A stretch of 64,000 nt of DNA. Source: Bacillota bacterium. GTDB taxonomy: Bacteria; Bacillota; Clostridia; Christensenellales; CAG-138. The stretch covers positions 106 through 64,105 of the forward strand of contig JAEWUO010000012.1 of the NCBI GenBank assembly GCA_023459335.1, in the 5' to 3' direction. The notes beneath the pieces were generated by a model, which made no database searches, was not told the origin of the DNA, and was given only the letters and a program-made list of their open reading frames with translations. This document shows, in pieces, positions 20,286 to 60,537 of this stretch. Numbering within the stretch: position 1 is the stretch's first letter; the number at the start of each line of letters is the position of its first letter. Made by a program: the position numbers and the translations under genes.

Positions 20286-21368
20286 TTAACAGAATCCTCT
20301 TGAGACTATATTGCGAGCCGCATTAATGTCTCGATCTAATTCCAAACTACAACTACACTTGTAAACTCTATCTTTTAATGTCAATTCAAGGTTTCTCTTT
20401 CCACATCTTGAACAATCCATTGAAGTATATGCTGGATTAACTTTAATGAAAATTCTTCCAAATTTCTTACATTTCCACTCTAAGGCTATTATAAACATAC
20501 CTAGTGGAGCAATAATTCTTAATCTTCGACGATTTTTATTTGACATTAAAATTTTACCATTTGTTAAATCTTCAATAGCAATATTATTTTCTATTGCTAA
20601 TTGAGTAGTTGTTTGTTCTATAAAATCTTTCTTTAAATTTTCTAATCTAAAATAAGCTTTGTCAAGTTTTTCTTTCAATTTCTGATAATTGTTTGAACCT
20701 TTGGTTTTCTTGCTTAATTTAGACTTTAAAGAATTAATTCTATAAAATTGTCTAAGAACAGTTCTTGGATAGTTTATTTTAATTCCATTTGATGTCGTCA
20801 TGAAATCTTTTATTCCCCAATCAAGACCTAATTGATTTTCTGTTTTTTCTAATGGTTCAATATTTACTTCACAAGAACCGCTAATATACCATTTTCCATA
20901 GGAGCAAGTATATCTTGGCTCTGTTATTGTTTTAATATTGTATTTGTTTAGAAATGTCATATCAATTGGACACTTTCTTCCTTTTTTAACACCAGAAAGA
21001 TTAATTGTATTGTCATCATTTATTTTAATTGTTTGACTAGCAATACAGAATGATTGTTTATTTGGATTATATTTGTGAAATTTTGGCGGTCTCCCGTTCT
21101 TGTTGTAAACTCTTTTCCAAGTTTGAGAATATTTCTTTGCAATATCATTATATATTCTTTTTGGAATATCTTCTCTAATGAATTCCTTCATTAAATCTTG
21201 AGGAGAAGAACCTTTGATGCTATATGTTCCACATATAATTTTTTCTCCAGAGTTTTTATATTTTTCAACAACATAATTCCACATTTCATGAGAACACTTA
21301 CAGAAGTAAAATAATTTTTCTTCTTGTTCTTTGTTTGGATAGATTCTGACTTTGAATCCTATTTTCAT
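20286..21368 (-). CDS. tnpB: TnpB (IS200/IS605-family OrfB, RuvC-like RNA-guided nuclease)
   Basis: LGLDWGIKDF, IAIEDLT and DRDINAARNI form the RuvC triad. Zn ribbon CSRCGKR...YKCSC. NPAYTS motif present. Confidence 0.85.
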   Translation of the reverse strand: MKIGFKVRIYPNKEQEEKLFYFCKCSHEMWNYVVEKYKNSGEKIICGTYSIKGSSPQDLMKEFIREDIPKRIYNDIAKKYSQTWKRVYNKNGRPPKFHKYNPNKQSFCIASQTIKINDDNTINLSGVKKGRKCPIDMTFLNKYNIKTITEPRYTCSYGKWYISGSCEVNIEPLEKTENQLGLDWGIKDFMTTSNGIKINYPRTVLRQFYRINSLKSKLSKKTKGSNNYQKLKEKLDKAYFRLENLKKDFIEQTTTQLAIENNIAIEDLTNGKILMSNKNRRRLRIIAPLGMFIIALEWKCKKFGRIFIKVNPAYTSMDCSRCGKRNLELTLKDRVYKCSCSLELDRDINAARNIVSRGFC

Positions 21369-28290: not shown

Positions 28291-28839
28291 ATGAGACAAA
28301 AACCAATATTAATTAATCTTTATGGTGGCCCGGGTAGTGGAAAATCATCAGCGATGTATGAAATAACTGGTAGATTAAAAACTATGGGTGTGGCAGCGGA
28401 GATGTCACCAGAGTTTGTAAAGACAAAGGTCTATAGTAAAGACAAGAAAACTTTTGAAAATCAATTATATATATTTGGAAATCAATCATTTCGACAAAGC
28501 ATACTAATAGGGGAGGTTGATGTTATTATAACAGATGCCCCACTTCTATTGAATGCCTTCTATGGTAAAAATGAAGATTATGCTAGAGAAATGTTATTAA
28601 TAGCTAAAAAATTCAATAGCTCTTTCCAAGAGTTTCATTTCTTCCTTAGGAGAGTAAAACCGTTTTGCCAAAACGGGCGTATTCATAATGAAGAACAATC
28701 TAGAGAGATTGATAAAGAATTATTTTCTTTATTAACAACCAATGTTGGTAAGGATGATTTTGATATTGTTAATGGAGATAGTAGCGGGACCGAAGAAATA
28801 ATCAAATTTATATTAAAGGAGCTCAAAAATGGTAGATAA
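28291..28839 (+). CDS. P-loop nucleotide/polynucleotide kinase-like protein
   Basis: LYGGPGSGKSS Walker A. Small size; DAPLL resembles Walker B. Confidence 0.55.
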   Translation: MRQKPILINLYGGPGSGKSSAMYEITGRLKTMGVAAEMSPEFVKTKVYSKDKKTFENQLYIFGNQSFRQSILIGEVDVIITDAPLLLNAFYGKNEDYAREMLLIAKKFNSSFQEFHFFLRRVKPFCQNGRIHNEEQSREIDKELFSLLTTNVGKDDFDIVNGDSSGTEEIIKFILKELKNGR

Positions 28840-31959: not shown

Positions 31960-32163
31960 TTGATACTATATACAACAGAAACTTGTCCAAAATGTAAAGC
32001 TTTAAAATTTTTATTAGATAATAAAAATTGTAAGTATGAGGTTGTCACAGACCAAAAAATATTACAAGAAAAAGAATTTACTGTTGTCCCAATGCTTGAA
32101 ATGGATGATGGTAGAGTTTTGAATTATGCGGCGGCGGCAATAGAAATAGGAGGTATTAAATAG
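31960..32163 (+). CDS. nrdH: glutaredoxin-like protein NrdH
   Basis: MILYTTETCPKCKALK contains a CxxC redox motif. 67 aa, directly upstream of nrdD. Confidence 0.75.
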   Translation: MILYTTETCPKCKALKFLLDNKNCKYEVVTDQKILQEKEFTVVPMLEMDDGRVLNYAAAAIEIGGIK

Positions 32164-32690
32164 TGCATATTAATTTTAAATTAAACAAAAACTTTGCAAC
32201 CACATTTAACAAACTCTGTGAAAAATATGGTGAAGAATTTGAATATCTAAATGGTGTTCATAAAACACAATTAGATGACACAGAGTTTATTGATCACTTT
32301 ACGGCTGACAACAAGAATATTTCCGATAATACGGTTGACCCAAATGCTAACCAAAAGTTCAAAGATATAGTTTCCCTAAGGGCTGAAAAGGGAAAGAGTA
32401 GAGATAAACTTCTAGCAATGAACAAAATATTTTATGAAGTTCAAAAAGAATATGGATTCCAGACAGCTAAGGAATTTTTGGAAGATGAGTGGAATGGTGC
32501 TACCTATTTGAATGATTTTGTGACAGCGTCATTCATCCCTTACTGCTTTAGTTATGATCTAACTAGATTATGTACTGAGGGATTGTTTATGCTTGGGGAT
32601 AATTACAATAACTTGCCGCCAAAACACCTAGACACATTTAATGATGATGTGGTGGAATATGTCTCATGGAACGCAAACAGGACCTCGGGT
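32163..32690 (+). CDS. nrdD: anaerobic ribonucleotide reductase NrdD, exon 1
   Basis: N-terminal NrdD-like region. The frame degenerates after ...NANRTSG (ggt, U last). Confidence 0.7.
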
Positions 32691-33785
32691 AGAAATATGC
32701 TGTGCCCTTTTATTTCTTTTCCACTAACCAGTGGTGTTGCTTATGCAGCTAACGGGGAAAACTAAGTATATGAATAATATATATGTCAATCCCGTGGGAA
32801 TTATTAAAAAGAGTATTTATATTATAACAAATAGTTTAAACAATAAAGTTTATATAGGACAATCAACCGAACCCGAGAGAAGATTTAAAGAACATTGTCG
32901 CAAGGGAGAGAGTTTGATTTCAAAAGCTATTAAAAAATATGGAGTTGAAAATTTTTCTTTAAATATATTAGATTGTGAAATTCTTAATTATAATGAAAGA
33001 GAAAAATATTGGATAAAATATTATGATAGTAAAGTACCATTTGGATATAATATTTTAGAAGGTGGCAATTGCCCTCCTAACTATAGCGGAGATGAACATC
33101 CAAATGTAAAACTTACAGAACAAATTGTTCTTTGTTTAAAAAATGACTTACTAAAAACAACTATTTCATTATCTCAATTAGCAGAAAAATACAATATCTC
33201 AAAAAGACAAGTAATTAGAATTAATAACGGAAGCAGTAGAGCGAAATTAAATGAAGAGTACCCCATTAGGAGAGTTCCAAATAATAATGGTAAGTTAACA
33301 ACAGAAGATATAGATATTATTATCGAATTGTTAAAATACTCCTATAGAGCTAATGGCGATATAGCTAAAGAATACGGGGTTGAAGTTCATACAATTTCTA
33401 AAATAAATAATGGAACTTGTCATAAGAGAGATAATATCCAATATCCAATAAGAAAATGGAAAAGTTGTGGAGTAACGCTTTTTACTTATGAAAATATTAC
33501 AGAAATTATAGATTTATTACTAAATTCCGAAGAATCAATTCGTAATATAGCAAAAAAGTATAGTGTGAGTCATTCAACTATTAACAATATAAATAAAGGA
33601 GTATCAAAAAGATATTATCGAGAGGGAGTAATTTACCCTTTAAGAACTCTTTAATAAAGCCTGTATCGACTATCCTCGCTAAGAGGAGTACAATTGCTAT
33701 TTGGTATGTAATTGGAAAGAGAAATCCTACAGTAAATACTGTAGTAAAAGATAGTCAGTCTTAATGGAAACATTAAGAGCCTACG
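32691..33785 (+). mobile_element. Group I intron 1 of nrdD with GIY-YIG ORF
   Basis: G at 33785 precedes GCA GTA GGA (AVGLADY...). The 3' part (33655-33770) is homologous to the 3' part of gyrB-like intron 2 (GTATCGACTATCCTCG, GATAGTCAG). GCTAACGG box present. Confidence 0.7.
32771..33654 (+). CDS. GIY-YIG homing endonuclease with three NUMOD1-like HTH repeats
   Basis: IYIITNSLNNKVYIGQS..RRFKEH..YGVENF..REKYWI. Repeats such as LAEKYNISKRQVIRINNG occur x3. Confidence 0.8.
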
Positions 33786-35753
33786 GCAGTAGGATTAGCA
33801 GATTACATTATATGGTCTTATTATTTTTGGAAGAATGATAAGGCAAGTGGATTATTTTGGAAAAAAGAAGATGGTGAGTTTATTGACATCTCTGAAAAAG
33901 CACTAAGACAAAGTTTTCAGAAGATTTGTTATAGACTGAACCAGCCCTTCCTACGCATTGATCAATCAGCATTTACCAATTTTTCTGTTTTTGATAGGTC
34001 TTACTTAGTAGAATTATTTGGTACAAAGGTGTTTCCAAATGGAGAACTCGGCATCACAATGATAGAAGGGTTTTTAGAACACCAAAAAATATTTTTAGAA
34101 GAGTTTTCTAGAATTAAAGGTGAAAATCTCTTTGGTTTTCCAGTTGTAACAATTTCATTGTTATATCAAGATGGGAAATTTGTTGACGAAGATTTTTCCA
34201 GATGGGCTTGTGAACACAATAGAAAATGGAATGATAGTAATCTATTTATTTCTGGTGAACTTGGGATTTTGAGTTCTTGTCCTTTAGATGGTGATACGGA
34301 GATCGTCTATTGGGGAGATAGACTAAAAAGATTTTTCTTGTCATCAATAGAAGACGTTTATAATAATCATAGTAGAGATGGTAAAATACCGTTAATAAAA
34401 ACTTTTTCAAATGGACAAATTATAAACTGTAGAATAAACAAATTTGATATCGCTCCAGAATATGAAATTACTTTAGCAAATAACGCAAAAATTAGAACCA
34501 CTGCAGATCATTTAAATAAAGTTTATGGAAGAGATTATGTTAGAACAAAAGAATTAACAACTGATGATTTTCTTCCTTATGGATTAAATAAATATATTGG
34601 TAGCGATAGTTTATCTTACGAAGAAGGTAAAATTGTTGGGGCTTTTCTAGGGGATGGCTCTTTTATAGAAAATGGGATTGTTCTAAGTCTAAATTCAAAT
34701 ACAGATAGAGATTTTATGGATTGGTTACATGACTATGTTCCAAAATATTTTGGAGGAAAATGTATAGAGGATGAAAAAACCTCAACTATTAGTGGGGAAA
34801 AAAGTTGTATTAATTTTAGAATTATTTCAAAATATTTAAAAGGATTAATAGAACAATGTGTTTTAGGAAAAAACGCTTTAACAAAGGAAATCAACTTGAT
34901 AGTATTAAATTATTCCGAACAATTTAGACAAGGATTAATAGATGGATGGCAAACTGCTGATGGTGGAAACAATAATAGAATTTATTCTTCCTCTAAAAAA
35001 CTTATAGATACAATGGTTGTTGTTTTTACTAGTTTAGGAATTGTAACTAGGATTGATGAAGATAATAGAGAAAGTAGACTTGGGAAAAATACTTGTTACA
35101 CTTTACGATTTTACACTCCAAATAAAAAGAAAATAAAAGATCTTTATATAGCAGAAGAAGATGTTCTGTGGATAAAAATTAAATCTATCACAAGATGTAG
35201 TAGTAAAAAAAGAAAATCTTATTGTTTAGAAGTATTGGATGATGTGGAGCCAGTATTTACACTAGGGAATGGTATTATTACACATAATTGCCGCGTCACT
35301 AACGATACCAAGCAAATGCCGGCGTTCATTAACTCAATAGGAGGAACAGCATTATCAATTGGTTCTGTAAAAGTTAATACTATTAACCTAAAGAGAATTG
35401 CCATAGAAAGCGGCGGCGATAAGGATAAATTTATGGAAATTCTTGAGAAAAGAATGATATTAGTGATGAAAGTTCTCAAAATTGTAAGAAGAATTATAAC
35501 TAGAAATATAGAAAAAGGGCTTTTAACTAACTATGTTGATGGTTGTATTGATATGGAGAAACAGTTTTGTACAATAGGTATTAATGCAATGTACGAAGCT
35601 ATAAATTATTTTAAACTAATCAAAACCGATGAATTTGGTTATAAATCTTATTCTGATGAAGGACTAGTTTTTGCGGCAAATATTTTAGATAAAATGAACA
35701 AATTGAAAGATGAATTTCCAGTAGATTATCAACAAAATATAGAATGTATCCCT
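33786..35753 (+). CDS. nrdD: NrdD exon 2 (includes an intein)
   Basis: AVGLADYIIWSYYFW..., SAFTNFSVFD, ...GILSS|intein|CRVTND..., ends NIECIP (cct, U last). Confidence 0.75.
34278..35288 (+). mobile_element. Intein (337 aa, class 1, LAGLIDADG endonuclease domain) in NrdD
   Basis: Begins CPLDGDTEIVY and ends GNGIITHN|C. IVGAFLGDGSF and GLIDGWQTADGG motifs. Confidence 0.8.
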
Positions 35754-36099
35754 AAAAGAACTGGGGCGTAGTAGTGTAAGCTACTAATGAAAACTTTCTC
35801 TGATTGACTTGGAAAACCTGAGTGGTTGACAGGGCGGAAGGATATATTATAGTCCACCGTGAACGACTAAGTGAGAAAGCGTCTTAAAAAGATGATGCGA
35901 TAGTCTGAACTCTACTGTAACATCAAAGTAGAGAGTAAAGTTTAACGACTTTACCGCCATATGTAAATATAATTATAGGAGAAATAGATTATTATTAATA
36001 ATATAAAAAATTCCAGCAGTAAAATAATTGGTGAGGTTATAAATAAATATAATATTGAATTTAATCAACCAGAACGTATGGTCATAAAGTAACAGATTG
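35754..36099 (+). mobile_element. Group I intron 2 of nrdD (ORF-less, 346 nt)
   Basis: Lies between ...ECIP and GETCAKIFCKKDF (NrdD consensus iPaEs..k.a.kD). Last nt is G. Contains GATAGTC and AACGACT boxes. Confidence 0.65.
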
Positions 36100-36264: not shown

Positions 36265-37266
36265 TTAAGATAATTTGGCTACCATAGTAAATTTAGTGAA
36301 CGCTACCAAGCGGTGTCTTTATTAATTTGAAGGCTAACGGGGGACGTTATTTACCAATCCCGTGCTGAGCTCCATAGAATAAGTTCTAAGGAGAAAGTGT
36401 AACGACTATCGGTGATGAGTGTAACCGAGTACAAGTAGAGATAAGTACTATTTGGAAGTGCGTAACTAGAGGGTGGAGTTTTCTACTGTCTAGAAGATAT
36501 AGTCTAATTAAAGGAGAATTTTGAATGAACTGTAAACAATGTGGAAAAGAAATTCCAAAAACAAATCAATTTAATATTAATTATAATGGAGAAAAAATTG
36601 TTGTGTGTGGTAAACACTATGCACAATATCTAAAATATAATCATTTTTTAGATAGTAATCAAAAAACTTGTTTTGATAGAAATGAGTATGAGATTACTGA
36701 AGACGGGGTATGGATATATACTTTTAATAGAAATCAAGAGGTGTCTGGTAAATTCTTGATTGATGAAGAAGATTTAGAAAGAGTTATTATTCATAAGTGG
36801 AGATTTTGGAAAAATACCTTTTATACTGGGACATATAATCCAGTTTCAATCCATAAATTTTTACTAAATACGCCGGCGGATAAAGTAGTTGATCATATAA
36901 ATGGAAATAGAAGCGATAATCGTAAAGAGAATTTACGAATTTGTTCTCAACACCAAAACGCAATAAACAGGAGTTTATTAAATAAAAATAAGAGCGGCGT
37001 TGCTGGTGTGTATTTTGACAAAATAAGAAGTAAATGGTTAGCTGAAATAAAATTTAATTATGTTAAATGTTTCTTAGGGCGTTTTTCTGAATTTGCTGAT
37101 GCTGTTTTTGTTAGATATTATGCTGAACAAAAGCTCTTTGGAGAGTTTAGAAATACAAGAAATGATTGTAACATTATCCAAATTGTAAATGATTGTAAAA
37201 ATAAAGAAGATTTGAAAAGTAAAATTGATTTGAAATTACAGGAAAAATTTAAAATTCAAGATTAAG
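36265..37266 (+). mobile_element. Group I intron 3 of nrdD with HNH-AP2 ORF
   Basis: Exon 3 ends GGT. G at 37266 precedes CAA ATT ACT CAC (QITHINID). GGCTAACGGGGG box. The ORF stop is 1 nt from the 3' splice site. Confidence 0.65.
36525..37265 (+). CDS. HNH homing endonuclease with AP2-like DNA-binding domain
   Basis: VVDHINGNRSDNRKENLR..HQN (HNH). SGVAGVYFDKIRSKWLAEI (AP2-like). Confidence 0.8.
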   Translation: MNCKQCGKEIPKTNQFNINYNGEKIVVCGKHYAQYLKYNHFLDSNQKTCFDRNEYEITEDGVWIYTFNRNQEVSGKFLIDEEDLERVIIHKWRFWKNTFYTGTYNPVSIHKFLLNTPADKVVDHINGNRSDNRKENLRICSQHQNAINRSLLNKNKSGVAGVYFDKIRSKWLAEIKFNYVKCFLGRFSEFADAVFVRYYAEQKLFGEFRNTRNDCNIIQIVNDCKNKEDLKSKIDLKLQEKFKIQD

Positions 37267-41867: not shown

Positions 41868-42738
41868 GAATAACATTGTCTGGAAATGCTTTTGCTCTAT
41901 TTGGAGCGGTCTATTTTAAAATAGGCTAACGGTATCAGAGAAATAAGACCTCCTATTGGAACTACAAGAGATAATAGGAATAATCTAAGGACGAATAATC
42001 TGACTAAGAAACCCTAAACCTGAAAATGGTGAGATAAAGGGAATACCGTACCAATCGTAAATTATTCCTCTTTAAAAGAGGTGATAAATATTTTCAAAGT
42101 ATATTGTATAACCAATTTAATTAATAATCATAAATATATAGGAATAACTTCACGTTCATTAGAAATAAGATTTTCAGAACATTGTTGCCATCCTCGTACT
42201 TTAATTTATTATGCAGTTAAAAAGTATGGAAAAGAAAATTTTATAATAGAACTAATTGAAGATAATGTGCCTAATGATTTAATAGATGAAAAAGAAAGAT
42301 ATTATATTAATAAATATAATACCTTAAAACCCAATGGATACAATTTATCAACAGGCGGGATTAGTAATAAAGGTGTTAATGAAGAAACAAGACAACATCT
42401 TAAAGAAATTAATTTAGGTATTAATAATCCTCGTTGTAATAAATATATTTTACAATACGATTTAAGTAATAATTTTATTGCAAAATATGGCTCAGCAAGA
42501 GAAGCTGGACGTGCATTGGGTAATGAAAATAAACGTGGAGCAATCTTAAATTGCTTAAATAAAAAAACAAAAACTTCACAAGGTTATATTTGGAAATATG
42601 AGGAATAATTAAGCGAAGGGTGTATCGACTATCCTCGTGAAGGGGAGTACCTATACTATTAATATGTATTGGGAAAGAGCATTCTCTCATTAGAGAGTAA
42701 AATATAGTCAGACCCAAGTTGAAAAATTGGATAAGTCG
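41868..42738 (+). mobile_element. Group I intron 2 of the gyrB-like gene with GIY-YIG ORF
   Basis: The flanks rejoin as DAD|DDGSHI (consensus DADvDGsHI). U is at the exon end and G at the intron end. The 3' part is homologous to nrdD intron 1. GGCTAACGG box present. Confidence 0.7.
42081..42608 (+). CDS. GIY-YIG homing endonuclease
   Basis: VYCITNLINNHKYIGIT..IRFSEH..YGKENF..KERYYI. Confidence 0.8.
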   Translation: MINIFKVYCITNLINNHKYIGITSRSLEIRFSEHCCHPRTLIYYAVKKYGKENFIIELIEDNVPNDLIDEKERYYINKYNTLKPNGYNLSTGGISNKGVNEETRQHLKEINLGINNPRCNKYILQYDLSNNFIAKYGSAREAGRALGNENKRGAILNCLNKKTKTSQGYIWKYEE

Positions 42739-47959: not shown

Positions 47960-49363
47960 ATGATAAAGAAAACTGAAAATGGAGCTATTGCATTTGAAGG
48001 TCTATGTTCAAAAGTAACAACATTATTCGGGTCGATAGGAGCATCTAGAAACATAGATGAAGAAATTATTGTTGATAGAATTAAAGAGGCTTATAATGAA
48101 TCGGTAGACTTAACTCGTCGTATGTGTCTATATGCCAGAGATATTCGTTGTGGCGGACTAGGAGAGAGAAAAGTAGGAAGAATATTCATAGAAACTATGT
48201 ATAAACTTGATACTGATTTTATATTACAAAATTTAGATAAGCTAGTATTATATGGACGCTGGGACGACATTACTGATTTGTTTGTAAAAACAAAAGATGA
48301 AAAAATTTTAAAATTCATATACAAACAACTACAAGATGATTTTGTTTCAAAAACCCCAAGTCTTTTGGCTAAATGGATGCCAAGCGAAAATACGTCTTCA
48401 AACAAGACTAGGGCGGCCGCAAAGACAATTAGAAAATCTTTAGAGATGAGTTCTAAGGAGTATAGAAAGATGCTATCTGGAATAAGAAAGAAGTTAAATT
48501 TAGTAGAAACAAAGTTAACTAATAAGTCTTATGATGAAATTGAATACTCAGGCGTACCTTCTGTTGCTATGAATATGTATAAGAAGACTTTTATTGAAAA
48601 AGACGGAGAAAGATTCGAGGAATTTATTTCCAAAGTGGAAAATGGTGAAGATACTATTAATGCCGGTGTATTATTTCCTTACAATATAATAGAAAGTTTC
48701 AATAGACGCTACTTAACTAGCGACGAGCTAAGGGTGGTAGAGCAACAATGGAAGGCACTACCAGACTATGTTGATTTCTCGGAAGATGTGCTCGTCATGG
48801 CGGACGTATCTGGATCAATGGAAGGGCGTCCAATGGCAACTTCAATAGGTATGGCTCTATATTTTGCAGAAAGAAATACTGGTGTATTTAAAAATCAATT
48901 TGTTACTTTTACAGATATCCCTAGATTATTTCATTTAGATCCAACGCTATCTCTTGAGGATAGATATAGATTAGTTTCAAAGGAAGTTGGATACAATACT
49001 AACTTAGATGGAGCATTGGGGGCTATTGTTAAATCAAATGGTTCTCCTAAAGCTTTGCTTGTAATATCCGATTGTGAGATAGATTGTTTCGTTGGTGATG
49101 GTAAAAGAGTTCAGACAATAGTTGCTAAATATAAGTCGATATTTAAAGCGGCGGGAAAAACTATGCCCAAAATAATATTCTGGAATGTTGAGGGCGGAAA
49201 GAGCTTTCTATCTCTTGAGAATGAGAATGTTGCATTTACCTCTGGGTATTCCGCATCAATCTTTAATCAATTGGAGAGTTTAATAAAGAAGGGATCAATA
49301 GAGGCGATAATAGAAATATTATCTAAATATGAATATAATACTGAGGAGGATATGCAATGGTAA
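47960..49363 (+). CDS. vWA-domain protein (DUF2828/TROVE-like)
   Basis: LVMADVSGSMEG (MIDAS DxSxS). 467 aa. Confidence 0.6.
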   Translation: MIKKTENGAIAFEGLCSKVTTLFGSIGASRNIDEEIIVDRIKEAYNESVDLTRRMCLYARDIRCGGLGERKVGRIFIETMYKLDTDFILQNLDKLVLYGRWDDITDLFVKTKDEKILKFIYKQLQDDFVSKTPSLLAKWMPSENTSSNKTRAAAKTIRKSLEMSSKEYRKMLSGIRKKLNLVETKLTNKSYDEIEYSGVPSVAMNMYKKTFIEKDGERFEEFISKVENGEDTINAGVLFPYNIIESFNRRYLTSDELRVVEQQWKALPDYVDFSEDVLVMADVSGSMEGRPMATSIGMALYFAERNTGVFKNQFVTFTDIPRLFHLDPTLSLEDRYRLVSKEVGYNTNLDGALGAIVKSNGSPKALLVISDCEIDCFVGDGKRVQTIVAKYKSIFKAAGKTMPKIIFWNVEGGKSFLSLENENVAFTSGYSASIFNQLESLIKKGSIEAIIEILSKYEYNTEEDMQW

Positions 49364-50079
49364 TGACATTTGTTGAATTATTAGCAGAGCAGCCAAATGA
49401 TCCGAAGGTGGATCAAAGTATAAAAATATTGATGGATGTATTGGGAGGAAAAAAAGAAAAGAAAGAGGATGTAAATATGGATAATATCTTAGAAAATGTG
49501 ATTGATGAGATTGTTGCAAATATCGATAGTTTAGATTCGTTAGCATATACAATTACTGTTGATAATAAGGGGAATATTAACATAAAAGAAGGTTTGATAC
49601 TTCCTTCAAAAGAACCAGTAACAGAAGAGCTTGAAGAGCTTAAAGAGACAGAAGAAAGCATAGGAAGTTACGGCTTCTTGGTGCGAGAATATCGAAATGA
49701 ATTAACAAAGGTAAATAATGACATTGAGGTGTTATTGGAAGAATATAAAAAAGCCTCAATGCAAAAAATAAAATTAACCGAAGAAATTGATAATGCAACA
49801 GAAGATTTAGAAGGACTCTCTCTTGAAGCAGTAAGAGCTTTCTATATGTGCACTAATGAGCCATCTAATAGAAATACTCTAGCAGAAAAATTAGTAGAGA
49901 TTAAGTATAAAGAAAATTCTATAAATGATTTAGAGATGGAACTTCACTCTGAAAATGAAATATTAAATTCTATTCCAGAAATTATGGAAGAGAAATATTG
50001 TACAGTAGAAGAGATCGAAGAAATTTTAGAGAACCTCAACGCATCTTTACAGGAAATCGATTCGTCTTTTTATATCTAA
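49357..50079 (+). CDS. acidic coiled-coil protein
   Basis: Glu-rich ORF overlapping the upstream stop. Confidence 0.45.
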   Translation: MVMTFVELLAEQPNDPKVDQSIKILMDVLGGKKEKKEDVNMDNILENVIDEIVANIDSLDSLAYTITVDNKGNINIKEGLILPSKEPVTEELEELKETEESIGSYGFLVREYRNELTKVNNDIEVLLEEYKKASMQKIKLTEEIDNATEDLEGLSLEAVRAFYMCTNEPSNRNTLAEKLVEIKYKENSINDLEMELHSENEILNSIPEIMEEKYCTVEEIEEILENLNASLQEIDSSFYI

Positions 50080-50096
50080 ACATCTTATAACATATG

Positions 50097-50146
50097 TGCG
50101 GCGGCTATATCGAACCCAAGAATAATATTAAGCCGCCGCATTTATT
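50097..50146 (+). terminator. GC-rich hairpin terminator
   Basis: TGCGGCGGCT...AGCCGCCGCA (10 bp) followed by TTTATT. Confidence 0.6.
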
Positions 50147-50173
50147 GATTTTATTTTTACTTTGTGTTATAAT
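50145..50173 (+). promoter_or_regulatory. phage consensus promoter (TTGATT; TTAATATAGAAAGTAAAA variant)
   Basis: TTGATT-17-TATAAT. Confidence 0.65.
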
Positions 50174-50214
50174 TAATATAGAAAGTAAAATAAGGAAAGA
50201 AAGAAGGTATAGTT

Positions 50215-51333
50215 ATGGGAATAAAAGCACTACAAGAAATTATGAAAACGAATAAAGATTGGAGAAATGTCTTCAAAAATGATTTTAACTTAATTGTTAA
50301 TGAAGATGACGATTATATATTAATATATTACACCAATTCTACCCCTAGAGAATATGAATTTCTTCATTGGACTAGAGGAGTAATATTTTCAAAAGTGGAT
50401 TGTTCTATTGTTGCTGCACCTTTTAAAAGGTTCTTCAACTATGGAGAACCATATGCTTCCAAACTATATGGAAAATTAAGATTTTTCGAGAAAATAGATG
50501 GTTCTTTAATAAAAATGTGGTTTCATAATGATGAATGGCACATTTCCACTCAAAAAAATATTGACGCAGGCAATGCCTTAGTCGATTTATCAATATTTTC
50601 TTTCAAAGATTTATTTATGGATGGACTAAAGGCTCAAGGTTTTTCTTTTTATAAGTTAGATAAGGGAGTAACTTATCTATTTGAATTGGTGTCACCATAT
50701 AATCAAGTGGTCGTAGCTCACGAAAGATGTCAAGTGTATCACTTAGCTTCTAGAGAAAATTCTTCTCTTAAAGAAATAGAGGTTGATATTGGAATACAAA
50801 AACCTCGAGAATATGGGTTTTTAAATATAGAAGAGGCTTGCGAGTTTGCTGATAAGTTTGATAACCTATCAATTGAAGGGTTTGTTGTAGTTGATGAGCT
50901 CTATAATAGAGTAAAATTAAAAACAAAAAAATATATAATGGCTCATCATATGAGAACTAATAGCAAATCCTTAAAATCTTTTTTAAGTATCATTGTTAAT
51001 GGTGAAGCTTCGGAGTTTAGAGCTTATTTCCCAAAAGAAGGGGAGATTTTATTATTTTTAGAAAAAACTATTCAACATTTAGAGGATACTGTTTTTCTAA
51101 AAACTAAATATTATAAATCTATATCTAATGGGAAAAAAGATTTTGTCCAAAAAATACAAGAAGAAGATGGTTATATTAAGTCTCTACTGTTAATATCCTA
51201 TGACAAACCTAGAGTCAATCTAAAAGAGAGAGCTAACTATAAAGGTCTAGAGGACTTGATGAAATTATTAACTCTTTTTGATCCTGATTTGAAAGAAAAA
51301 ATGAAAGAAATATTATTATGTTCATATAATTGA
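50215..51333 (+). CDS. RNA ligase (Rnl family, KxDG nucleotidyltransferase)
   Basis: FEKIDGSLIKMWF (motif I), YLFELVSP, EGFVVVD (motif IV), VKLKTKKY (motif V). Confidence 0.7.
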   Translation: MGIKALQEIMKTNKDWRNVFKNDFNLIVNEDDDYILIYYTNSTPREYEFLHWTRGVIFSKVDCSIVAAPFKRFFNYGEPYASKLYGKLRFFEKIDGSLIKMWFHNDEWHISTQKNIDAGNALVDLSIFSFKDLFMDGLKAQGFSFYKLDKGVTYLFELVSPYNQVVVAHERCQVYHLASRENSSLKEIEVDIGIQKPREYGFLNIEEACEFADKFDNLSIEGFVVVDELYNRVKLKTKKYIMAHHMRTNSKSLKSFLSIIVNGEASEFRAYFPKEGEILLFLEKTIQHLEDTVFLKTKYYKSISNGKKDFVQKIQEEDGYIKSLLLISYDKPRVNLKERANYKGLEDLMKLLTLFDPDLKEKMKEILLCSYN

Positions 51334-54439: not shown

Positions 54440-54727
54440 AATCATTTTATAGCTTAATTAAGGCTATATAAAATGTATTAATAGAATCTTACGCACCTCT
54501 TAACAATGTGTCCCAGTAAGAACATTTATTATTTATTATATTGAGTTTTTGTTCGTCAGTTAAACTAGGTGAAAAAGCTATTCACTACTAAGAAGTTTCT
54601 TTTGTTGAAGAACACCAGAATAATACGACTGGTATAAAGAGGAACAAAGTAAAACTAAGAAAACAGGAGTTTCTCAATATAATATTTATATTCACTCTTA
54701 GCTCAGACGGTAGAGCGTGTGGCTGTT

Positions 54728-55189
54728 TACCTGACCTCAGATTGTGTTTCTTATGGATACAAAGAGAAAAGGTAACATAACTGAAATGGAAACTATGCTT
54801 GCGTTTATGAAACTCGGTTATAATGTTCTTACTCCGTATGGAGACTGTGAGCGTTATGATTTCGTAGTTGATATAGGCAATAAGTTTATAAGAGTACAGA
54901 GTAAGACAGCATCAACAGAAAACAACGGAGCATCATTTAAGATTAGCACTTCAAGTTCTAATCGAAAAGATGGTGGCGTTGTTCATCACACTTACACAAA
55001 AGAAGATATTGACTATTTTACAACGGTTTTTGACGGCATTGTTTATTTATTCCCTGTTGAAATATGCGGCGGAAGAGATAAGCAATTCAGAATAGAACCA
55101 ACAAAGAATGGACAAGTGAGAGGAATCACTTGGGCGAAAGATTATGTTTTATCAGAGGTGATTAAAACAATCTGAGCTGATGTGTAAGC
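54728..55189 (+). mobile_element. Intervening sequence in tRNA-Asn, 92% of which is a homing-endonuclease ORF
   Basis: Only about 25 nt 5' and 14 nt 3' of the ORF are non-coding. The ends pair with each other: GTTTAC/GTAAGC and CTCAGA/TCTGAG. Confidence 0.65.
54753..55175 (+). CDS. PD-(D/E)XK endonuclease of the I-Ssp6803I / PDDEXK_5 type
   Basis: KGNITEMETMLAFMKLGYNVLTPYGDCERYDFVVDIGNKFIRVQSKTA matches the family signature as I recall it. An alternative GTG start lies at 54744. Confidence 0.65.
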   Translation: MDTKRKGNITEMETMLAFMKLGYNVLTPYGDCERYDFVVDIGNKFIRVQSKTASTENNGASFKISTSSSNRKDGGVVHHTYTKEDIDYFTTVFDGIVYLFPVEICGGRDKQFRIEPTKNGQVRGITWAKDYVLSEVIKTI

Positions 55190-55236
55190 AACCACAGGGT
55201 CGTTGGTTCGAGTCCAACAGGGTGAGCTAGATTAAA

Positions 55237-55314
55237 GCAAAAGCTTTGTGTTGGTGGTATTACGATATTGCCAACGCAAAAGCTTTGTGTTGGTGGTATT
55301 ACGATATTGCCAAC
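55237..55314 (+). repeat. Perfect tandem duplication of a 39-bp unit, each unit forming an 11-bp hairpin with a UACG loop
   Basis: GCAAAAGCTTTGTGTTGGTGGTATTACGATATTGCCAAC x2. Confidence 0.9.
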
Positions 55315-58838: not shown

Positions 58839-59510
58839 ATGAATAGATTATTTATAACTGGAGACTTACATTGTCCACTAGATATAGAGAAGTTAGAGAT
58901 TTTTAATAATAACAATGAACTTGATGAAACTGACATTCTTATTATCTTTGGCGATGCCGGCTTGCTATGGGATGATAATGATGAGAGAAAAGAATGGATT
59001 AAAAAAATTGAAAACTATCCATTCACAACTTTTGTAGTTGCTGGTAATCATGAAAATTACGATATGATTGAAAGGTTACCAAAAGTCTTGAAATATGGGG
59101 CGGCCGCAAGAAAAGTTCACTCAAAACTGTTTTATGATGTTAGGGGTTCAGTTTATAATTTCAATGGAAGAAAATGCCTAACAGTCTCTGGTGGAAACTC
59201 AATTGACAAAGAGAGACGCACAATAGGAGTTAGTTGGTGGCCGCAAGAACAAATAACTCTTAATGATGTAGATATGGCAAAAAGAAGCCTTGGTCTTTAT
59301 AATAATAAAGTTGACTATATTCTCACTCATGTTGGAACAAGAAATGTTGTTGAGAGCTTTGGATTTACTCCAGATAGTTGTGTTCTTGCTATGGATGAAA
59401 TTCTTCGTGATGTTATTTATAAGCATCATTACTTTGGACACTATCACTTAGATGAGAATGTTTCAAAGAAACAAACCATTTTATACGATAATTTTGTTGA
59501 ATTAAATTGA
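58839..59510 (+). CDS. calcineurin-like metallophosphoesterase
   Basis: FITGDLHCP, IIFGDAG, AGNHEN, LTHVG, FGHYH. Confidence 0.75.
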   Translation: MNRLFITGDLHCPLDIEKLEIFNNNNELDETDILIIFGDAGLLWDDNDERKEWIKKIENYPFTTFVVAGNHENYDMIERLPKVLKYGAAARKVHSKLFYDVRGSVYNFNGRKCLTVSGGNSIDKERRTIGVSWWPQEQITLNDVDMAKRSLGLYNNKVDYILTHVGTRNVVESFGFTPDSCVLAMDEILRDVIYKHHYFGHYHLDENVSKKQTILYDNFVELN

Positions 59511-59535
59511 CTTCAATCAAATTATATGGTATAAT
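59507..59535 (+). promoter_or_regulatory. phage consensus promoter
   Basis: TTGACT-17-TATAAT. Confidence 0.7.
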
Positions 59536-59567
59536 TATATTATAGTAAAAGAAAGGAAGTATATTAA

Positions 59568-59768
59568 ATGAGAATTGACAGTTCATTTATAAAAAGAGTT
59601 TCATATAAAAAAGGAAAAAGATTGTTAAAACTGGAGATGATTAGTGGCACTTATGAATACTCTGAAGTGCCAAAGAGAATATTTAAGGATTTTTTAAAAG
59701 CGTCTTCGGCGGGAAAGTTCTATAATTCCTTTATAAAAGGAGAATTTCTAAGCCAGAGAATTCAATAG
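59568..59768 (+). CDS. KTSC-domain protein
   Basis: SSFIKRVSYKKGKRLLKLEMISGTYEYSEVPKRIFKDFLKASSAGKFYNSFIKG. Confidence 0.6.
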   Translation: MRIDSSFIKRVSYKKGKRLLKLEMISGTYEYSEVPKRIFKDFLKASSAGKFYNSFIKGEFLSQRIQ

Positions 59769-59787
59769 ATAGAATAGGAGAACACTT

Positions 59788-60537
59788 ATGTATTTTAAAG
59801 AATTAGAGACAAAATCAATAGTAAAACTAGACAAAAAACTGCCAGTTGTTGTTAGATTGGATGGAAAATCTTTTAGTAGCTTTACAAAAAATTTCAAAAA
59901 GCCTTTTTGTGAAGTGTTCTATCTATCAATGCTAGATACAACAAGATTGCTCTTAAAAAGTGATGTCCAAGGTATTGTCGGTGCTATAGTAGCATCAGAT
60001 GAAATATCTATTTTTCTACGGTCTTTTTATGATAGAAAAGGAAATAGGAGTGGATATTTTGATTTCAATGTTCAAAAACTAGCTTCAACTTTAGCTAGTA
60101 GGGTTACGAGAATATTTAATACGTGTTTTAGAAAAAATGTTGAAATATTCTCTGAAAATAGTTATGATGATATAGAAAGAGTAAAAGCATTGACAGCTGC
60201 AATAGATATGGCTGAATTCGACTGTAGAAGTTTTTCCTTAGATTCAACTGGCGAAATATATGACTACTTACTAAATAGACAATCAGACTTTAGCAGAAAT
60301 GCTATCAATATGGCCGCCAGAGAGGAATTTTCTCATAGTGAACTAGTCGGAGTTCCTAGTGCAGTTGTTGAAAACAGCCTTAATCACTTAGGTAAATTTG
60401 TTGAAGATAAATACAAGTTTGGAGCAATATTTATAAAAAGTGGCGGTGAAGTTTTTGAACTTCCATCTAAAAAAGTTTCAAAATTAAAGCAGAAAATAGG
60501 AATAATAAGTAAAGAATTTGAATATTGGGGTGAGTAA
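59788..60537 (+). CDS. Thg1-like protein (tRNA-His guanylyltransferase family, 3'-5' polymerase)
   Basis: FKELE...LPVVVRLDGKSFSSFTKNFKKPF...ASDEISIFL match the Thg1/TLP N-terminal motifs. Confidence 0.65.
   Translation: MYFKELETKSIVKLDKKLPVVVRLDGKSFSSFTKNFKKPFCEVFYLSMLDTTRLLLKSDVQGIVGAIVASDEISIFLRSFYDRKGNRSGYFDFNVQKLASTLASRVTRIFNTCFRKNVEIFSENSYDDIERVKALTAAIDMAEFDCRSFSLDSTGEIYDYLLNRQSDFSRNAINMAAREEFSHSELVGVPSAVVENSLNHLGKFVEDKYKFGAIFIKSGGEVFELPSKKVSKLKQKIGIISKEFEYWGE

Follow-up and report, generated by a model that had tools for sequence, protein, structure and literature searches.

To our knowledge, every intron known from a bacterial tRNA gene is a group I intron that splices itself. The homing endonuclease I-Ssp6803I is encoded in a group I intron that occupies the anticodon loop of the Synechocystis PCC 6803 tRNA-fMet (PMC1995217, PMC2677866), and this intron is 655 nt long with a 150-aa ORF (PMC1995217). 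According to a 2014 review, all phage introns then known were in protein-coding genes, despite the many tRNA genes of phages (PMC3984707). An old idea, voiced in a passage of PMC6125680, holds that introns spliced by proteins arose from group I introns. Here we describe a phage tRNA gene whose anticodon loop is interrupted by a relative of I-Ssp6803I, with very little RNA around it.

A tRNA-Asn gene with an interrupted anticodon loop

The window, by which we mean the whole 64,000-nucleotide stretch of DNA analyzed, contains a tRNA-Asn(GUU) gene in two halves, arranged as follows.

54692..54727, + strand: 5' exon of tRNA-Asn(GUU), nt 1 to 36 (acceptor, D arm, 5' strand of the anticodon stem, C32 U33 G34 U35 U36)
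54728..55189, + strand: mobile intron-like insert of 462 nt between nt 36 and 37 (boundary fixed by the alignment with locus L162 and by the intron-less alleles of Schiekvirus)
54753..55175, + strand: ORF of 140 aa within the insert, for an I-Ssp6803I-like PD-(D/E)XK homing endonuclease (PDDEXK_5; PF11645, PDB 2OST)
55190..55226, + strand: 3' exon of tRNA-Asn, nt 37 to 73 (A37 A38, 3' strand of the anticodon stem, variable loop, T arm, 3' strand of the acceptor, G73)

The sequence-only reading had proposed a tRNA-Asn with canonical halves, split in the anticodon loop by a 462-nt insert, and this was borne out, with the site exactly at 36/37. The 5' half at 54692-54727 (TCACTCT TA GCTC AGACGGTA GAGC G TGTGG CTGTT) and the 3' half at 55190-55226 (AA CCACA GGGTC GTTGG TTCGAGT CCAAC AGGGTGA G), as read from the sequence, provide U1:A72, G73 and, once spliced, the loop CUGUU-AA; the gene-encoded 3' end carries no CCA. 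The spliced window sequence closely matches genuine bacterial tRNA-Asn genes, and its differences in the acceptor and anticodon stems are compensated. When 54728-55189 was deleted in silico, ARAGORN reported tRNA-Asn(GUU), and the exon-exon junction predicted for the phage-type tRNA-Asn, if spliced, is GCGTGTGGCTGTTAACCACAGGGTCG.

The intact locus was called neither by ARAGORN at default settings nor by Rfam. With introns allowed, ARAGORN placed a tRNA at 54692-55227 with an intron of 462 nt, and because its boundary was 1 nt off it labelled the gene Asp. This Asp(GUC) label is ruled out by the intron-less Schiekvirus allele CTGTTAACC and by the match of the exons to tRNA-Asn. For annotation, this means that the split tRNA is overlooked by standard tools in this phage.

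The insert encodes an I-Ssp6803I-like nuclease

As first estimated, the insert is 92% ORF (423/462 nt), and its non-coding part amounts to 25 nt upstream and 14 nt downstream. The ORF starts with ATG at 54753, with GTG at 54744 as an alternative start. Its early assignment to the I-Ssp6803I-like PDDEXK_5 type is now backed by the match to PF11645 (E=1.6e-29, 103.1 bits against a cut-off of 26.1) and to PDB 2OST, the I-Ssp6803I structure (5.8e-10). The AlphaFold model of the protein, built with an alignment of database proteins, reached a pLDDT of 90.3 and a TM of 0.78-0.80 on the 2OST chains, and 2OST was also its best structural match in Foldseek. The protein has 592 homologues. The residues E, D, D and QxK recur in every homologue aligned, whether intron-borne or free-standing, their catalytic role being assigned by homology. 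By sequence and modelled fold, the ORF product is a bona fide I-Ssp6803I-like nuclease, with putative active-site residues kept across the family.

The insert belongs to a mobile family

About 100 loci share the same layout, mostly on contigs of gut and rumen phages, and because so many homologous loci have it, the arrangement in the window is not a product of chance. The interrupted genes encode tRNA-Asn, Ile, Lys, Asp and Pro and a UUA suppressor. Removal of the insert at 36/37 yields a tRNA in 30 of 31 viral-contig loci and in 75 of 83 loci from metagenomes or MAGs.

Two comparisons fix the boundary of the insert. The window intron is about 90% identical to the intron of L162, which lies in another tRNA-Asn, and the intron termini are 100% identical, while exons and flanks differ; the identity stops exactly between CTGTT and TACC on one side and between TAAGC and AACC on the other. 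Enterococcus phage EFP01 has a 463-nt insert exactly between T36 and A37 of its tRNA-Asn, and in 29 Schiekvirus phages with flanks 97-98% identical to those of EFP01 the tRNA-Asn is uninterrupted. By these alignments the element is mobile. The ORF of the EFP01 intron is annotated only as a hypothetical protein, and full-text searches on phage tRNA introns, PDDEXK_5 and EFP01 found no description of the family in the literature.

The ends of the insert form a covarying RNA structure

The approximately 40 non-coding nt of the insert form a covarying structure composed of a helix Pa, an internal loop with tandem G·A pairs (CUGAC / CUGAUG) and a second helix Pb.

54725..54730, + strand: Pa 5' arm GUUUAC, i.e., G34 U35 U36 and intron nt 1 to 3, with the 5' splice site within it, after 54727
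54731..54735, + strand: internal loop, 5' strand CUGAC, resembling box D (CUGA)
54736..54744, + strand: Pb 5' arm CUCAGAUUG, pairing with 55168-55176
55168..55176, + strand: Pb 3' arm CAAUCUGAG, including the ORF stop TGA at 55173-55175
55177..55183, + strand: internal loop, 3' strand CUGAUG plus a bulged U, resembling box C (RUGAUGA)
55184..55189, + strand: Pa 3' arm GUAAGC, whose terminal AGC pairs with the anticodon, with the 3' splice site after 55189

The terminal pairings GTTTAC/GTAAGC and CTCAGA/TCTGAG, which had been noticed in this one sequence, are present and backed by covariation. Family-wide, the anticodon and the next 3-4 nt pair with the last 6-7 nt of the intron; Pa appears as UAC/GUA, UGC/GCA, CAC/GUG, UUGA/UUGA and UCUU/AAGA, with 99.6% of its cells paired, and Pb shows compensatory changes in 6/9 pairs. 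Over the whole structure, 93.4% of cells are paired vs 37-43% in slid controls, 10/16 pairs carry compensatory changes, and none of 500 shuffles reached the observed pairing. RNAalifold independently gives the Pa/loop/Pb fold. The single-sequence MFE fold of the 535-nt precursor contains neither the cloverleaf nor Pa/Pb and is uninformative (z = -4.2).

Both splice sites lie inside the continuous duplex Pa, 3 bp apart. The last three nt of the intron track the anticodon in the Asn, Lys, Ile and Pro introns (AGC/GUU, AAA or AGA/UUU, AUC/GAU, CUA/UGG), with G·U pairs frequent among them, and in the Asp intron the terminal GUC faces the anticodon with a U·U in the middle. This tracking through G·U pairs is a signature at the RNA level.

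In the internal loop, YUGAC was found in 43/63 distinct intron termini, and its C1 pairs with G6 of the facing strand in a pair that covaries as CG/UG/AU. In sequence the loop agrees with a kink-turn or box C/D-like motif, which has tandem sheared G·A pairs next to a 3-nt bulge, since CUGAUGU faces CUGA (CUGAUGA in L085, AUGAUGU in L114), but the unpaired nt are split 1+2, not 0+3. The loop varies by subfamily: it is AA / CAUU in the Ile type, unrelated in the Asp subfamily and absent in L152-L154. Because of these differences, it is not a universal recognition element.

These data bear on whether the interrupted gene still yields a tRNA. It could be that the endonuclease gene landed in a dispensable phage tRNA gene and inactivated it, that no splicing takes place, and that the terminal helices act on behalf of the ORF, for instance by stabilizing or processing its transcript or by controlling its translation. 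Phages can often do without their tRNA genes; EFP01 is viable in culture, and no ligase was detectable in the 150 kb of its genome examined; free-standing homologues adjoin tRNA-Asn genes without an intron; and a few members look decayed (L034 without the 5' half, L006 with C33, L111 with anticodon GCU, and also L023), so the tRNA is not always maintained. Against this stands the fact that approximately 90% of about 110 loci keep both foldable tRNA halves, with many different compensating stems, and that the intron 3' end is complementary to whichever anticodon precedes it, a property with no role in ORF expression. Moreover, a single 165-kb contig carries three such introns (Asp, Pro, Asn) among about 15 tRNA genes, all tolerated by one phage. 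We consider simple inactivation unlikely.

Group I, BHB and hammerhead features are absent

It was argued at the outset that the non-coding RNA of the insert is too short to hold a group I core, and this objection stands: only 39 nt lie outside the ORF, vs roughly 200 nt or more. Self-splicing would then need a compact or cryptic group I-like core within the ORF, or else a new small ribozyme made up of Pa, the G·A loop and Pb together. Mobile introns of bacteria and phages are normally autocatalytic, and the CUGAC/CUGAUG loop is strongly conserved. The homologous I-Ssp6803I does reside in a group I intron (PMC1995217, PMC2677866). The group I covariance model of Rfam (RF00028) gave no match at E<=10 in the insert, a negative that is weak by itself, being without a positive control, and the model is equally silent on other split genes, in this phage and in EFP01, whose status as group I introns is itself unconfirmed.

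The structural evidence speaks against self-splicing. RNAalifold on 51 diverse introns returned the terminal helices only, with no conserved helix within the ORF, and synonymous sites showed no constraint in any part of the ORF, along which conservation is flat. In the window the intron ends in C, and family members end in C or A, so the terminal G of group I introns (omega-G) is absent. There is neither a P1 or internal-guide pairing nor a U·G pair where the 5' exon ends, the pair there being U36-A; instead, the 5' exon end, i.e., the anticodon, pairs with the intron 3' end rather than with a 5'-proximal guide. The conserved loop is itself exchanged for unrelated ones in the Ile and Asp subfamilies and lost in L152-L154. 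A hammerhead reading of CUGAUG was also rejected, since only two helices meet at the loop, with no stem III and no GAAA. A group I intron is thus rejected for its size, for the missing terminal G and P1, and because no internal structure is conserved; a ribozyme core hidden in the coding sequence, one of the three explanations offered by the sequence-only reading, is disfavored on the same grounds together with the RF00028 result and the flat synonymous sites, and self-splicing in any form seems to us quite improbable.

The bulge-helix-bulge (BHB) motif was rejected as well. Both splice sites lie in the continuous Pa, we found no alternative pairing that would give a BHB, and the intron-less alleles place the insertion at 36/37, not at the BHB-canonical 37/38. 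Neither EndA nor RtcB was found among the window ORFs scanned (approximately 40 for EndA), and the intron protein is not EndA-like in Foldseek. Bacterial hosts are not known to encode EndA.

A possible protein-spliced intron without a ribozyme

Protein-dependent removal had been put forward on the argument that the PD-(D/E)XK fold is common with tRNA-splicing endonucleases. This argument found no support, as no tRNA-splicing endonuclease was among the best 50 structural matches in Foldseek; removal by protein itself is nevertheless the best-supported reading, because of the covarying Pa and the splice sites set 3 bp apart in a duplex, a spacing which points to duplex-specific protein cleavage. 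We tentatively favor, while holding it somewhat short of probable, a mobile intron that has no ribozyme and consists of a homing-endonuclease gene plus about 40 nt of structured RNA, excised by protein and then ligated. Splicing itself, the cutter and the ligating enzyme are what we infer here.

At the DNA level, the ORF enzyme would presumably cut uninterrupted tRNA genes at the anticodon region and copy the element in by homing. At the RNA level, the intron ends fold back on the anticodon stem: Pa comes first, the tandem G·A loop is next, and Pb closes the loop that holds the ORF. Cuts at the two splice sites, across the minor groove of Pa, would leave 3-nt 3' overhangs, and excision would be the work of a dimeric, duplex-specific protein endonuclease, not of RNA catalysis. 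A candidate cutter is the intron's own nuclease, which always travels with the element; its substrate would be an RNA helix imitating its DNA target over the left half and the center. Bonocora and Shub reportedly found in 2001 that the DNA cuts made by I-Ssp6803I flank the anticodon triplet and leave 3-nt 3' extensions, and this geometry equals that of the two splice sites in Pa. No consistent similarity links Pa or the loop to the right half of the DNA target; mimicry of that half was rejected, and any mimicry is limited to the left half and the center. We know of no PD-(D/E)XK homing endonuclease that cleaves double-stranded RNA. That the element represents a new intron class in bacterial viruses, in which a homing endonuclease doubles as RNA splicing endonuclease on a pre-tRNA mimicking its DNA target, is a speculative possibility that we would not call likely.

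Alternatively, proteins may splice the transcript, but the cutter may be a host or other phage RNase (RNase III-family, RNase M5 or another) that recognizes the long irregular hairpin, the homing endonuclease acting on DNA only and Rnl1, RtcB or Pnkp/Hen1 performing the ligation. The anticodon stem, Pa, loop and Pb would stack to a helix of about 30 bp, like phage RNase III processing sites, and the splice sites are set by structure without conserved sequence, as expected for helix-measuring enzymes. In the window and in L172, genes for RNA repair also lie grouped with tRNA genes, namely Rnl1 (near the intron in L172), a Ro-like RNA-binding protein, a metallophosphoesterase and an AAA_33/HD kinase-like protein. 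On the other side, the occurrence of the element in many different phages argues for self-sufficiency, and the ORF scan of the window described above gave no EndA or RtcB. RNase III itself leaves 2-nt 3' overhangs, not 3-nt ones, and was rejected as the excising enzyme because no pair of cuts with a 2-nt stagger restores the 7-nt CUGUUAA loop. We find a borrowed RNase of this kind improbable.

In the preferred protein-spliced reading, an RNA ligase would close the nick left in the anticodon loop, and the window offers the following gene as a candidate for this step.

50215..51333, + strand: T4 Rnl1-type RNA ligase, 3.4 kb upstream of the split tRNA (PF09511, 1.6e-13; PHROG 562 'RNA ligase', 1e-36)

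The early claim of a phage-encoded RNA ligase is confirmed by PF09511 and PHROG 562, and tblastn also matched the gene to T4-like RnlA genes. The 'kinase-like' protein named beside it (28291-28839) resembles a thymidylate kinase rather than a polynucleotide kinase. Pnkp was not found in the window, and its lack together with an Rnl1 beside the tRNA cluster fits 5'-P/3'-OH ends. By this association, the Rnl1 homologue may be the enzyme that reseals the anticodon loop here, and elsewhere a host enzyme could possibly do so. As an obligatory partner, the phage Rnl1 is unsupported: EFP01 has no detectable homologue of it (150 kb of the 155-kb genome examined), no ligase lies within 10 kb in L170 or L171, and a viral-contig scan with the window Rnl1 returned no relatives. 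For bacteria without an Rnl-type ligase, we know of no obvious way in which 3'-OH and 5'-P ends within a loop could be sealed. The cultured phage EFP01 and its approximately 29 near-identical intron-less siblings make the system directly testable.

Comparison with known systems

The closest described system, the Synechocystis intron, resembles the phage insert in its PF11645 endonuclease (TM to 2OST of about 0.8), its tRNA host, its site in the anticodon loop and its mobility. However, it has a self-splicing group I core of about 200 nt, whereas the phage insert has only 39 non-coding nt, no core, no terminal G and no P1, and pairs the anticodon with the intron 3' end. The hosts are also different, namely phages of gut and rumen bacteria in one case and a cyanobacterial chromosome in the other.

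The same nuclease family also occurs in a free-standing form. Free-standing PDDEXK_5 genes adjoin tRNA-Asn or tRNA-Ile in Kuttervirus SM5, Vibrio phage River4, Pectobacterium phage My1 and the haloarchaeal virus HSTV-4, and these enzymes likely have the same tRNA-gene specificity as the intron-borne ones. In contrast to the latter, they lie between uninterrupted tRNA genes and do not depend on splicing. Invariant residues set the intron-borne clade apart (PYGDCERYDF vs PFGDNARYD in free-standing members), and this clade has gained the Pa/loop/Pb module. We take T4 SegB to be a functional analogue of the free-standing genes in phage tRNA clusters.

The PrrC/Pnkp/Rnl1 system of T4, which breaks and repairs the anticodon loop of tRNA-Lys, is comparable in that the window encodes, beside its tRNA cluster, a ligase of the Rnl1 type, with the known job of resealing a broken anticodon loop. 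In T4, the break is a host defence and the ends are healed by Pnkp, whereas here the break would be part of the programmed removal of an intron and no Pnkp was found in the window. If the tRNA is spliced, phage RNA ligases would gain a housekeeping role.

Archaeal BHB introns, some of which contain a homing-endonuclease ORF, share with the phage insert the combination of an ORF and a short helix, splice sites defined by structure, and protein-dependent removal, which relies on EndA and RtcB in archaea and is proposed here. The difference lies in the geometry: the BHB sets its splice sites in two 3-nt bulges 4 bp apart, at position 37/38, whereas the phage sites lie 3 bp apart in a continuous duplex, at 36/37. 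Should the insert be spliced, it would bear on the evolution of protein-dependent introns from mobile ones, and if the nuclease truly has the dual role, it would be a living mobile intron without a ribozyme, lost or never possessed, a scenario already put forward for how archaeal BHB introns arose. Splicing would then make this a third route of tRNA-intron removal, after group I ribozymes and EndA/BHB, operating in bacteria and their viruses.

A split tRNA-Asn gene encloses a nuclease ORF

Direct reading of the sequence reveals a class I tRNA in two halves, separated by a 462-nt insert.

Parts of the split tRNA-Asn (a slash in the anticodon loop marks the break)
54692-54727 and 55190-55226: 5' and 3' halves
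Acceptor stem: UCACUCU/AGGGUGA, with U1:A72 and G73
D arm: GCUC...GAGC
Anticodon stem: UGUGG/CCACA
Anticodon loop: CUGUU/AA, broken after nt 36
T arm: GUUGG-UUCGAGU-CCAAC

This gene is called neither by default ARAGORN nor by Rfam. With introns allowed, ARAGORN recognizes 54692-55227 as a tRNA containing an intron of 462 nt, and in silico deletion of 54728-55189 yields tRNA-Asn(GUU), which bears out the sequence-only reading of a tRNA-Asn broken in its anticodon loop. The spliced tRNA is near-identical to many uninterrupted bacterial tRNA-Asn genes, except in the acceptor and anticodon stems, where the differences are compensated.

The insert holds a single ORF of 140 aa, from ATG 54753 (or GTG 54744) to TGA 55175, which occupies 92% of its length and leaves 25 nt ahead and 14 nt behind, as had been read earlier. 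The product matches PF11645 (PDDEXK_5, E=1.6e-29) and PDB 2OST (I-Ssp6803I, 5.8e-10), and its AlphaFold model (pLDDT 90.3) can be superposed on 2OST at a TM of 0.78-0.80; it is an I-Ssp6803I-type nuclease, as first proposed. The next structural matches are Hjc resolvases, and the top 50 contain no tRNA-splicing endonuclease, so the earlier suggestion of a fold shared with those enzymes found no support. An invariant motif, PYGDCERYDF, is peculiar to the intron-borne branch. In two related loci (L032:1501-1920 and L034:1501-1920), the otherwise intact intron ORF carries an in-frame TAG at a conserved position (the Thr of NVLTPYGD), which suggests that these phages read TAG as a sense codon.

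The insert is mobile and widespread

Enterococcus phage EFP01 contains an insert of 463 nt, with an ORF that shares 50% identity with that of the window, while 29 other Schiekvirus phages, with flanks 97-98% identical to EFP01, have an annotated and uninterrupted tRNA-Asn. Alignment with these intron-less alleles places the EFP01 insert exactly between T36 and A37 (...GGCTGTT/AACCAG...). The window intron also shares about 90% identity with the tRNA-Asn intron of L162, a 165-kb contig (GCA_019971235.1, JAHXDZ010000354.1), with 100% identity in the non-coding ends; the exons and flanks are diverged or unalignable, and identity ends at CTGTT/TACC and TAAGC/AACC. At the level of sequence comparison, these two cases show the mobility of the insert and its boundaries.

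A perfect 39-bp tandem duplication (55237-55314; GCAAAAGCTTTGTGTTGGTGGTATTACGATATTGCCAAC twice), 10 nt downstream of the window 3' exon, is absent from L162. In EFP01, the ORF bears no annotation beyond hypothetical protein, and the split tRNA is unannotated. About 270 nt downstream of it lies a ROOL RNA (RF03087, 264.8 bits; L159:6240-6826, EFP01 record 106240-106826), which heads that phage's tRNA cluster.

A protein-guided scan of viral contigs identified 31 loci with ORFs 38-74% identical to that of the window; metagenomes contributed 80 further loci, many labelled human gut, and bacterial genomes only 3, all on MAG contigs. Of 31 sequences tested (the window and 30 of the viral-contig loci), 30 gave an ARAGORN tRNA on deletion of the insert at 36/37, mostly Asn(GUU), with Lys(UUU) once, Ile(GAU) four times and anticodon UUA once. 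The same was true of metagenome and bacterial-genome loci (75/83, a handful of the 75 being placed in the wrong register by the script). In L162 alone, three of about 15 tRNA genes are split by PDDEXK_5-bearing inserts, and their cluster also contains a GIY-YIG gene.

Split tRNAs of L162
256-808: Asp(GUC)
1164-1905: Pro(UGG), with a longer ORF of 208 aa
5939-6477: Asn(GUU)

Additionally, in the 3' exons of three loci (L005, L007, L034), an unusual T arm, GAGA-UAUCGUAAU-UCUC, replaces the usual GUUCRANYC loop.

The intron ends form a covarying RNA structure

The insert ends had been proposed to pair and to extend the anticodon stem; they do, and the helices covary. At the base of the fold, C32 U33 lie opposite A37 A38. 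In the first helix, Pa, G34 U35 U36 and the 3-4 intron nt that follow them pair with the 6-7 nt at the intron 3' end, and an internal loop separates it from a second helix, Pb.

Structure of the intron ends in the window
54725-54730 with 55184-55189: Pa, GUUUAC with GUAAGC
54731-54735 opposite 55177-55183: internal loop, CUGAC opposite CUGAUG and a bulged U
54736-54744 with 55168-55176: Pb, which closes off the ORF and holds its stop codon

Every helix covaries among 17 diverse, hand-aligned termini, and RNAalifold gives the same fold. For 32 distinct gap-free termini, 93.4% of cells are paired versus 37-43% with slid partners, both sides change in 10 of 16 pairs, and none of 500 shuffles reached the observed values. 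Read from aligned sequences, this covariation is strong evidence. The last three intron nt track the anticodon.

Intron 3' ends by anticodon
GUU (Asn): AGC
UUU (Lys): AAA or AGA
GAU (Ile): AUC, including one CUGAC-type Ile intron (L151)
UGG (Pro): CUA
GUC (Asp): GUC, with a central U·U

Several of these anticodon:intron-end pairs are G·U, which points to selection on RNA rather than on DNA.

The CUGAC/CUGAUG loop is present in 43 of 63 distinct termini, its first nt forming a C-G, U-G or A-U pair with nt 6 on the other strand. It resembles a box D facing a box C (with C-G, U·U and tandem G·A), and we term it only kink-turn-like because the unpaired bases split 1+2. In its place, the Ile and Asp subfamilies show different asymmetric loops, AA/CAUU and AAACU/GUAA. 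The same kind of intron in a tRNA with anticodon UUA, a potential ochre suppressor (L033, also L148 and L156), pairs continuously from the anticodon stem without an internal loop.

Known intron types do not fit

The non-coding part of the window insert is only 39 nt; the Synechocystis tRNA-fMet intron has 655 nt with a 150-aa ORF (PMC1995217). A group I covariance-model check, suggested in the sequence-only reading, gave no Rfam match at the locus at E<=10, a result weak alone, the model having been run without a positive control, and likewise nothing in other split genes of the window phage or EFP01. The last intron nt is C or A, not G, and the exon end, instead of binding a 5' guide sequence, pairs with the intron 3' end. 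Among 51 full-length introns (<85% mutual identity), RNAalifold recovered the terminal helices only, and codon-level conservation among same-residue pairs was flat along the ORF. Because of size, end nucleotides and comparative folding, we reject a group I intron, all of whose features fail; the idea of a ribozyme core embedded in the ORF, which has no conserved helices, is disfavoured. A BHB intron is also rejected, the splice sites lying 3 bp apart in a continuous duplex at position 36/37, and so is a hammerhead, because the loop joins just two helices. The RNA might instead be a new small ribozyme.

In EFP01, the annotation splits the genes for terminase large subunit, RecA and DNA polymerase into several pieces each (L160/L161/L159); Rfam at gathering threshold found no group I intron in the 150 kb examined.

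Proposed excision and ligation

Splicing, and the enzymes that would perform it, we infer as follows. Since foldable tRNA halves are kept at about 90% of about 110 loci, with very different stem sequences, and the intron 3' end is adapted to the anticodon, we think that the RNA is processed to tRNA. That the insert stays unspliced and the tRNA is dead is a rival reading, which a few decayed copies support (L034, L006, L023, L111).

The splice sites have no conserved sequence, and their geometry is fixed, one per Pa strand, flanking three anticodon base pairs. Cuts there would leave 3-nt 3' overhangs, as produced by a dimeric nuclease cutting across the minor groove, and among proteins, only the intron's own nuclease is always found with the RNA module. 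I-Ssp6803I reportedly cuts each DNA strand beside the anticodon triplet, giving 3-nt 3' extensions. The pre-tRNA anticodon stem, U33-A37 and anticodon:AGC reproduce the left half and centre of the DNA target duplex at 8 of 10 positions, and the splice sites coincide with where the two DNA cuts are said to fall. Therefore, our preferred model is that the homing endonuclease would cut the pre-tRNA as well as DNA, though cleavage of double-stranded RNA is not known for PD-(D/E)XK homing endonucleases. Alternatively, a host or other phage RNase might cut; the 2-nt stagger of RNase III does not fit the splice sites.

Metal-dependent PD-(D/E)XK cutting leaves 5'-P and 3'-OH ends, which in anticodon loops are joined by T4 Rnl1-type ligases. 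After cutting by the homing endonuclease, such a ligase would reseal the anticodon loop, and the RNA ligase attributed to this phage is indeed a T4 Rnl1-type gene (50215-51333), shortly upstream of the tRNA cluster. No polynucleotide kinase-phosphatase was detected, no Rnl1 homologue was detectable in 150 kb of the 155-kb EFP01 genome, and two further loci (L170, L171) have no ligase within 10 kb; another, L172, has Rnl1 and an AAA_33/HD kinase-like gene nearby.

RNA-repair-like genes surround the window tRNA cluster (47960-51333 and 58839-60537): a DUF2828/DUF7788 protein (PHROG 850 'RNA-binding protein'), the T4 Rnl1-type ligase, a metallophosphoesterase and a Thg1-like member of the tRNA-His guanylyltransferase family. 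A comparable module (308-aa ORF, DUF2828 and Metallophos) comes after the tRNA cluster of L162, and L172 adds the AAA_33/HD protein.

Other selfish elements of the window

The anaerobic ribonucleotide reductase gene nrdD (32163-35771) is also in pieces.

Selfish elements and nrdD fragments
20286-21368 (-): TnpB/IS605 OrfB gene; EFP01 has a homologue
32163-32765: nrdD N-terminal fragment
32731-33654: GIY-YIG/HTH endonuclease ORF following that fragment
34029-35771: NrdD part with a LAGLIDADG-domain intein
36525-37265 (+): HNH endonuclease
42081-42608 (+): second GIY-YIG/NUMOD endonuclease, between gyrB and gyrA

With Rfam, the surroundings of the nrdD GIY-YIG ORF show no group I intron, so this insertion may be another one without a detectable ribozyme.

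Relationship to known systems

Free-standing homologues of the ORF lie beside tRNA-Asn or tRNA-Ile in Kuttervirus, Thalassavirus, T5-like phages and haloarchaeal virus HSTV-4.

Free-standing homologues directly downstream of tRNA-Asn(GUU)
L003:1905-2492: Salmonella Kuttervirus
L004:1801-2369: Vibrio Thalassavirus
L169:1105-1641: haloarchaeal tailed virus

Because such homologues adjoin tRNA-Asn in both, the link between enzyme family and tRNA-Asn, judged by gene neighbourhood, spans bacterial and archaeal viruses. Their position beside tRNA genes suggests a tRNA-gene-specific endonuclease family, one branch of which moved into its target and acquired the Pa/loop/Pb module.

A 2014 review of bacterial group I introns places every phage intron known at that time in a protein-coding gene (PMC3984707), and our full-text literature searches found no description of a ribozyme-less, PDDEXK_5-bearing split phage tRNA. 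We conclude that the insert, with the anatomy, family, mobility and RNA structure shown here, is a real and widespread mobile tRNA intron without a ribozyme, undescribed as far as we could find. By protein and target, its closest relative is the I-Ssp6803I-encoding group I intron of cyanobacterial tRNA-fMet; by logic, it is closest to the archaeal BHB introns with homing-endonuclease ORFs.
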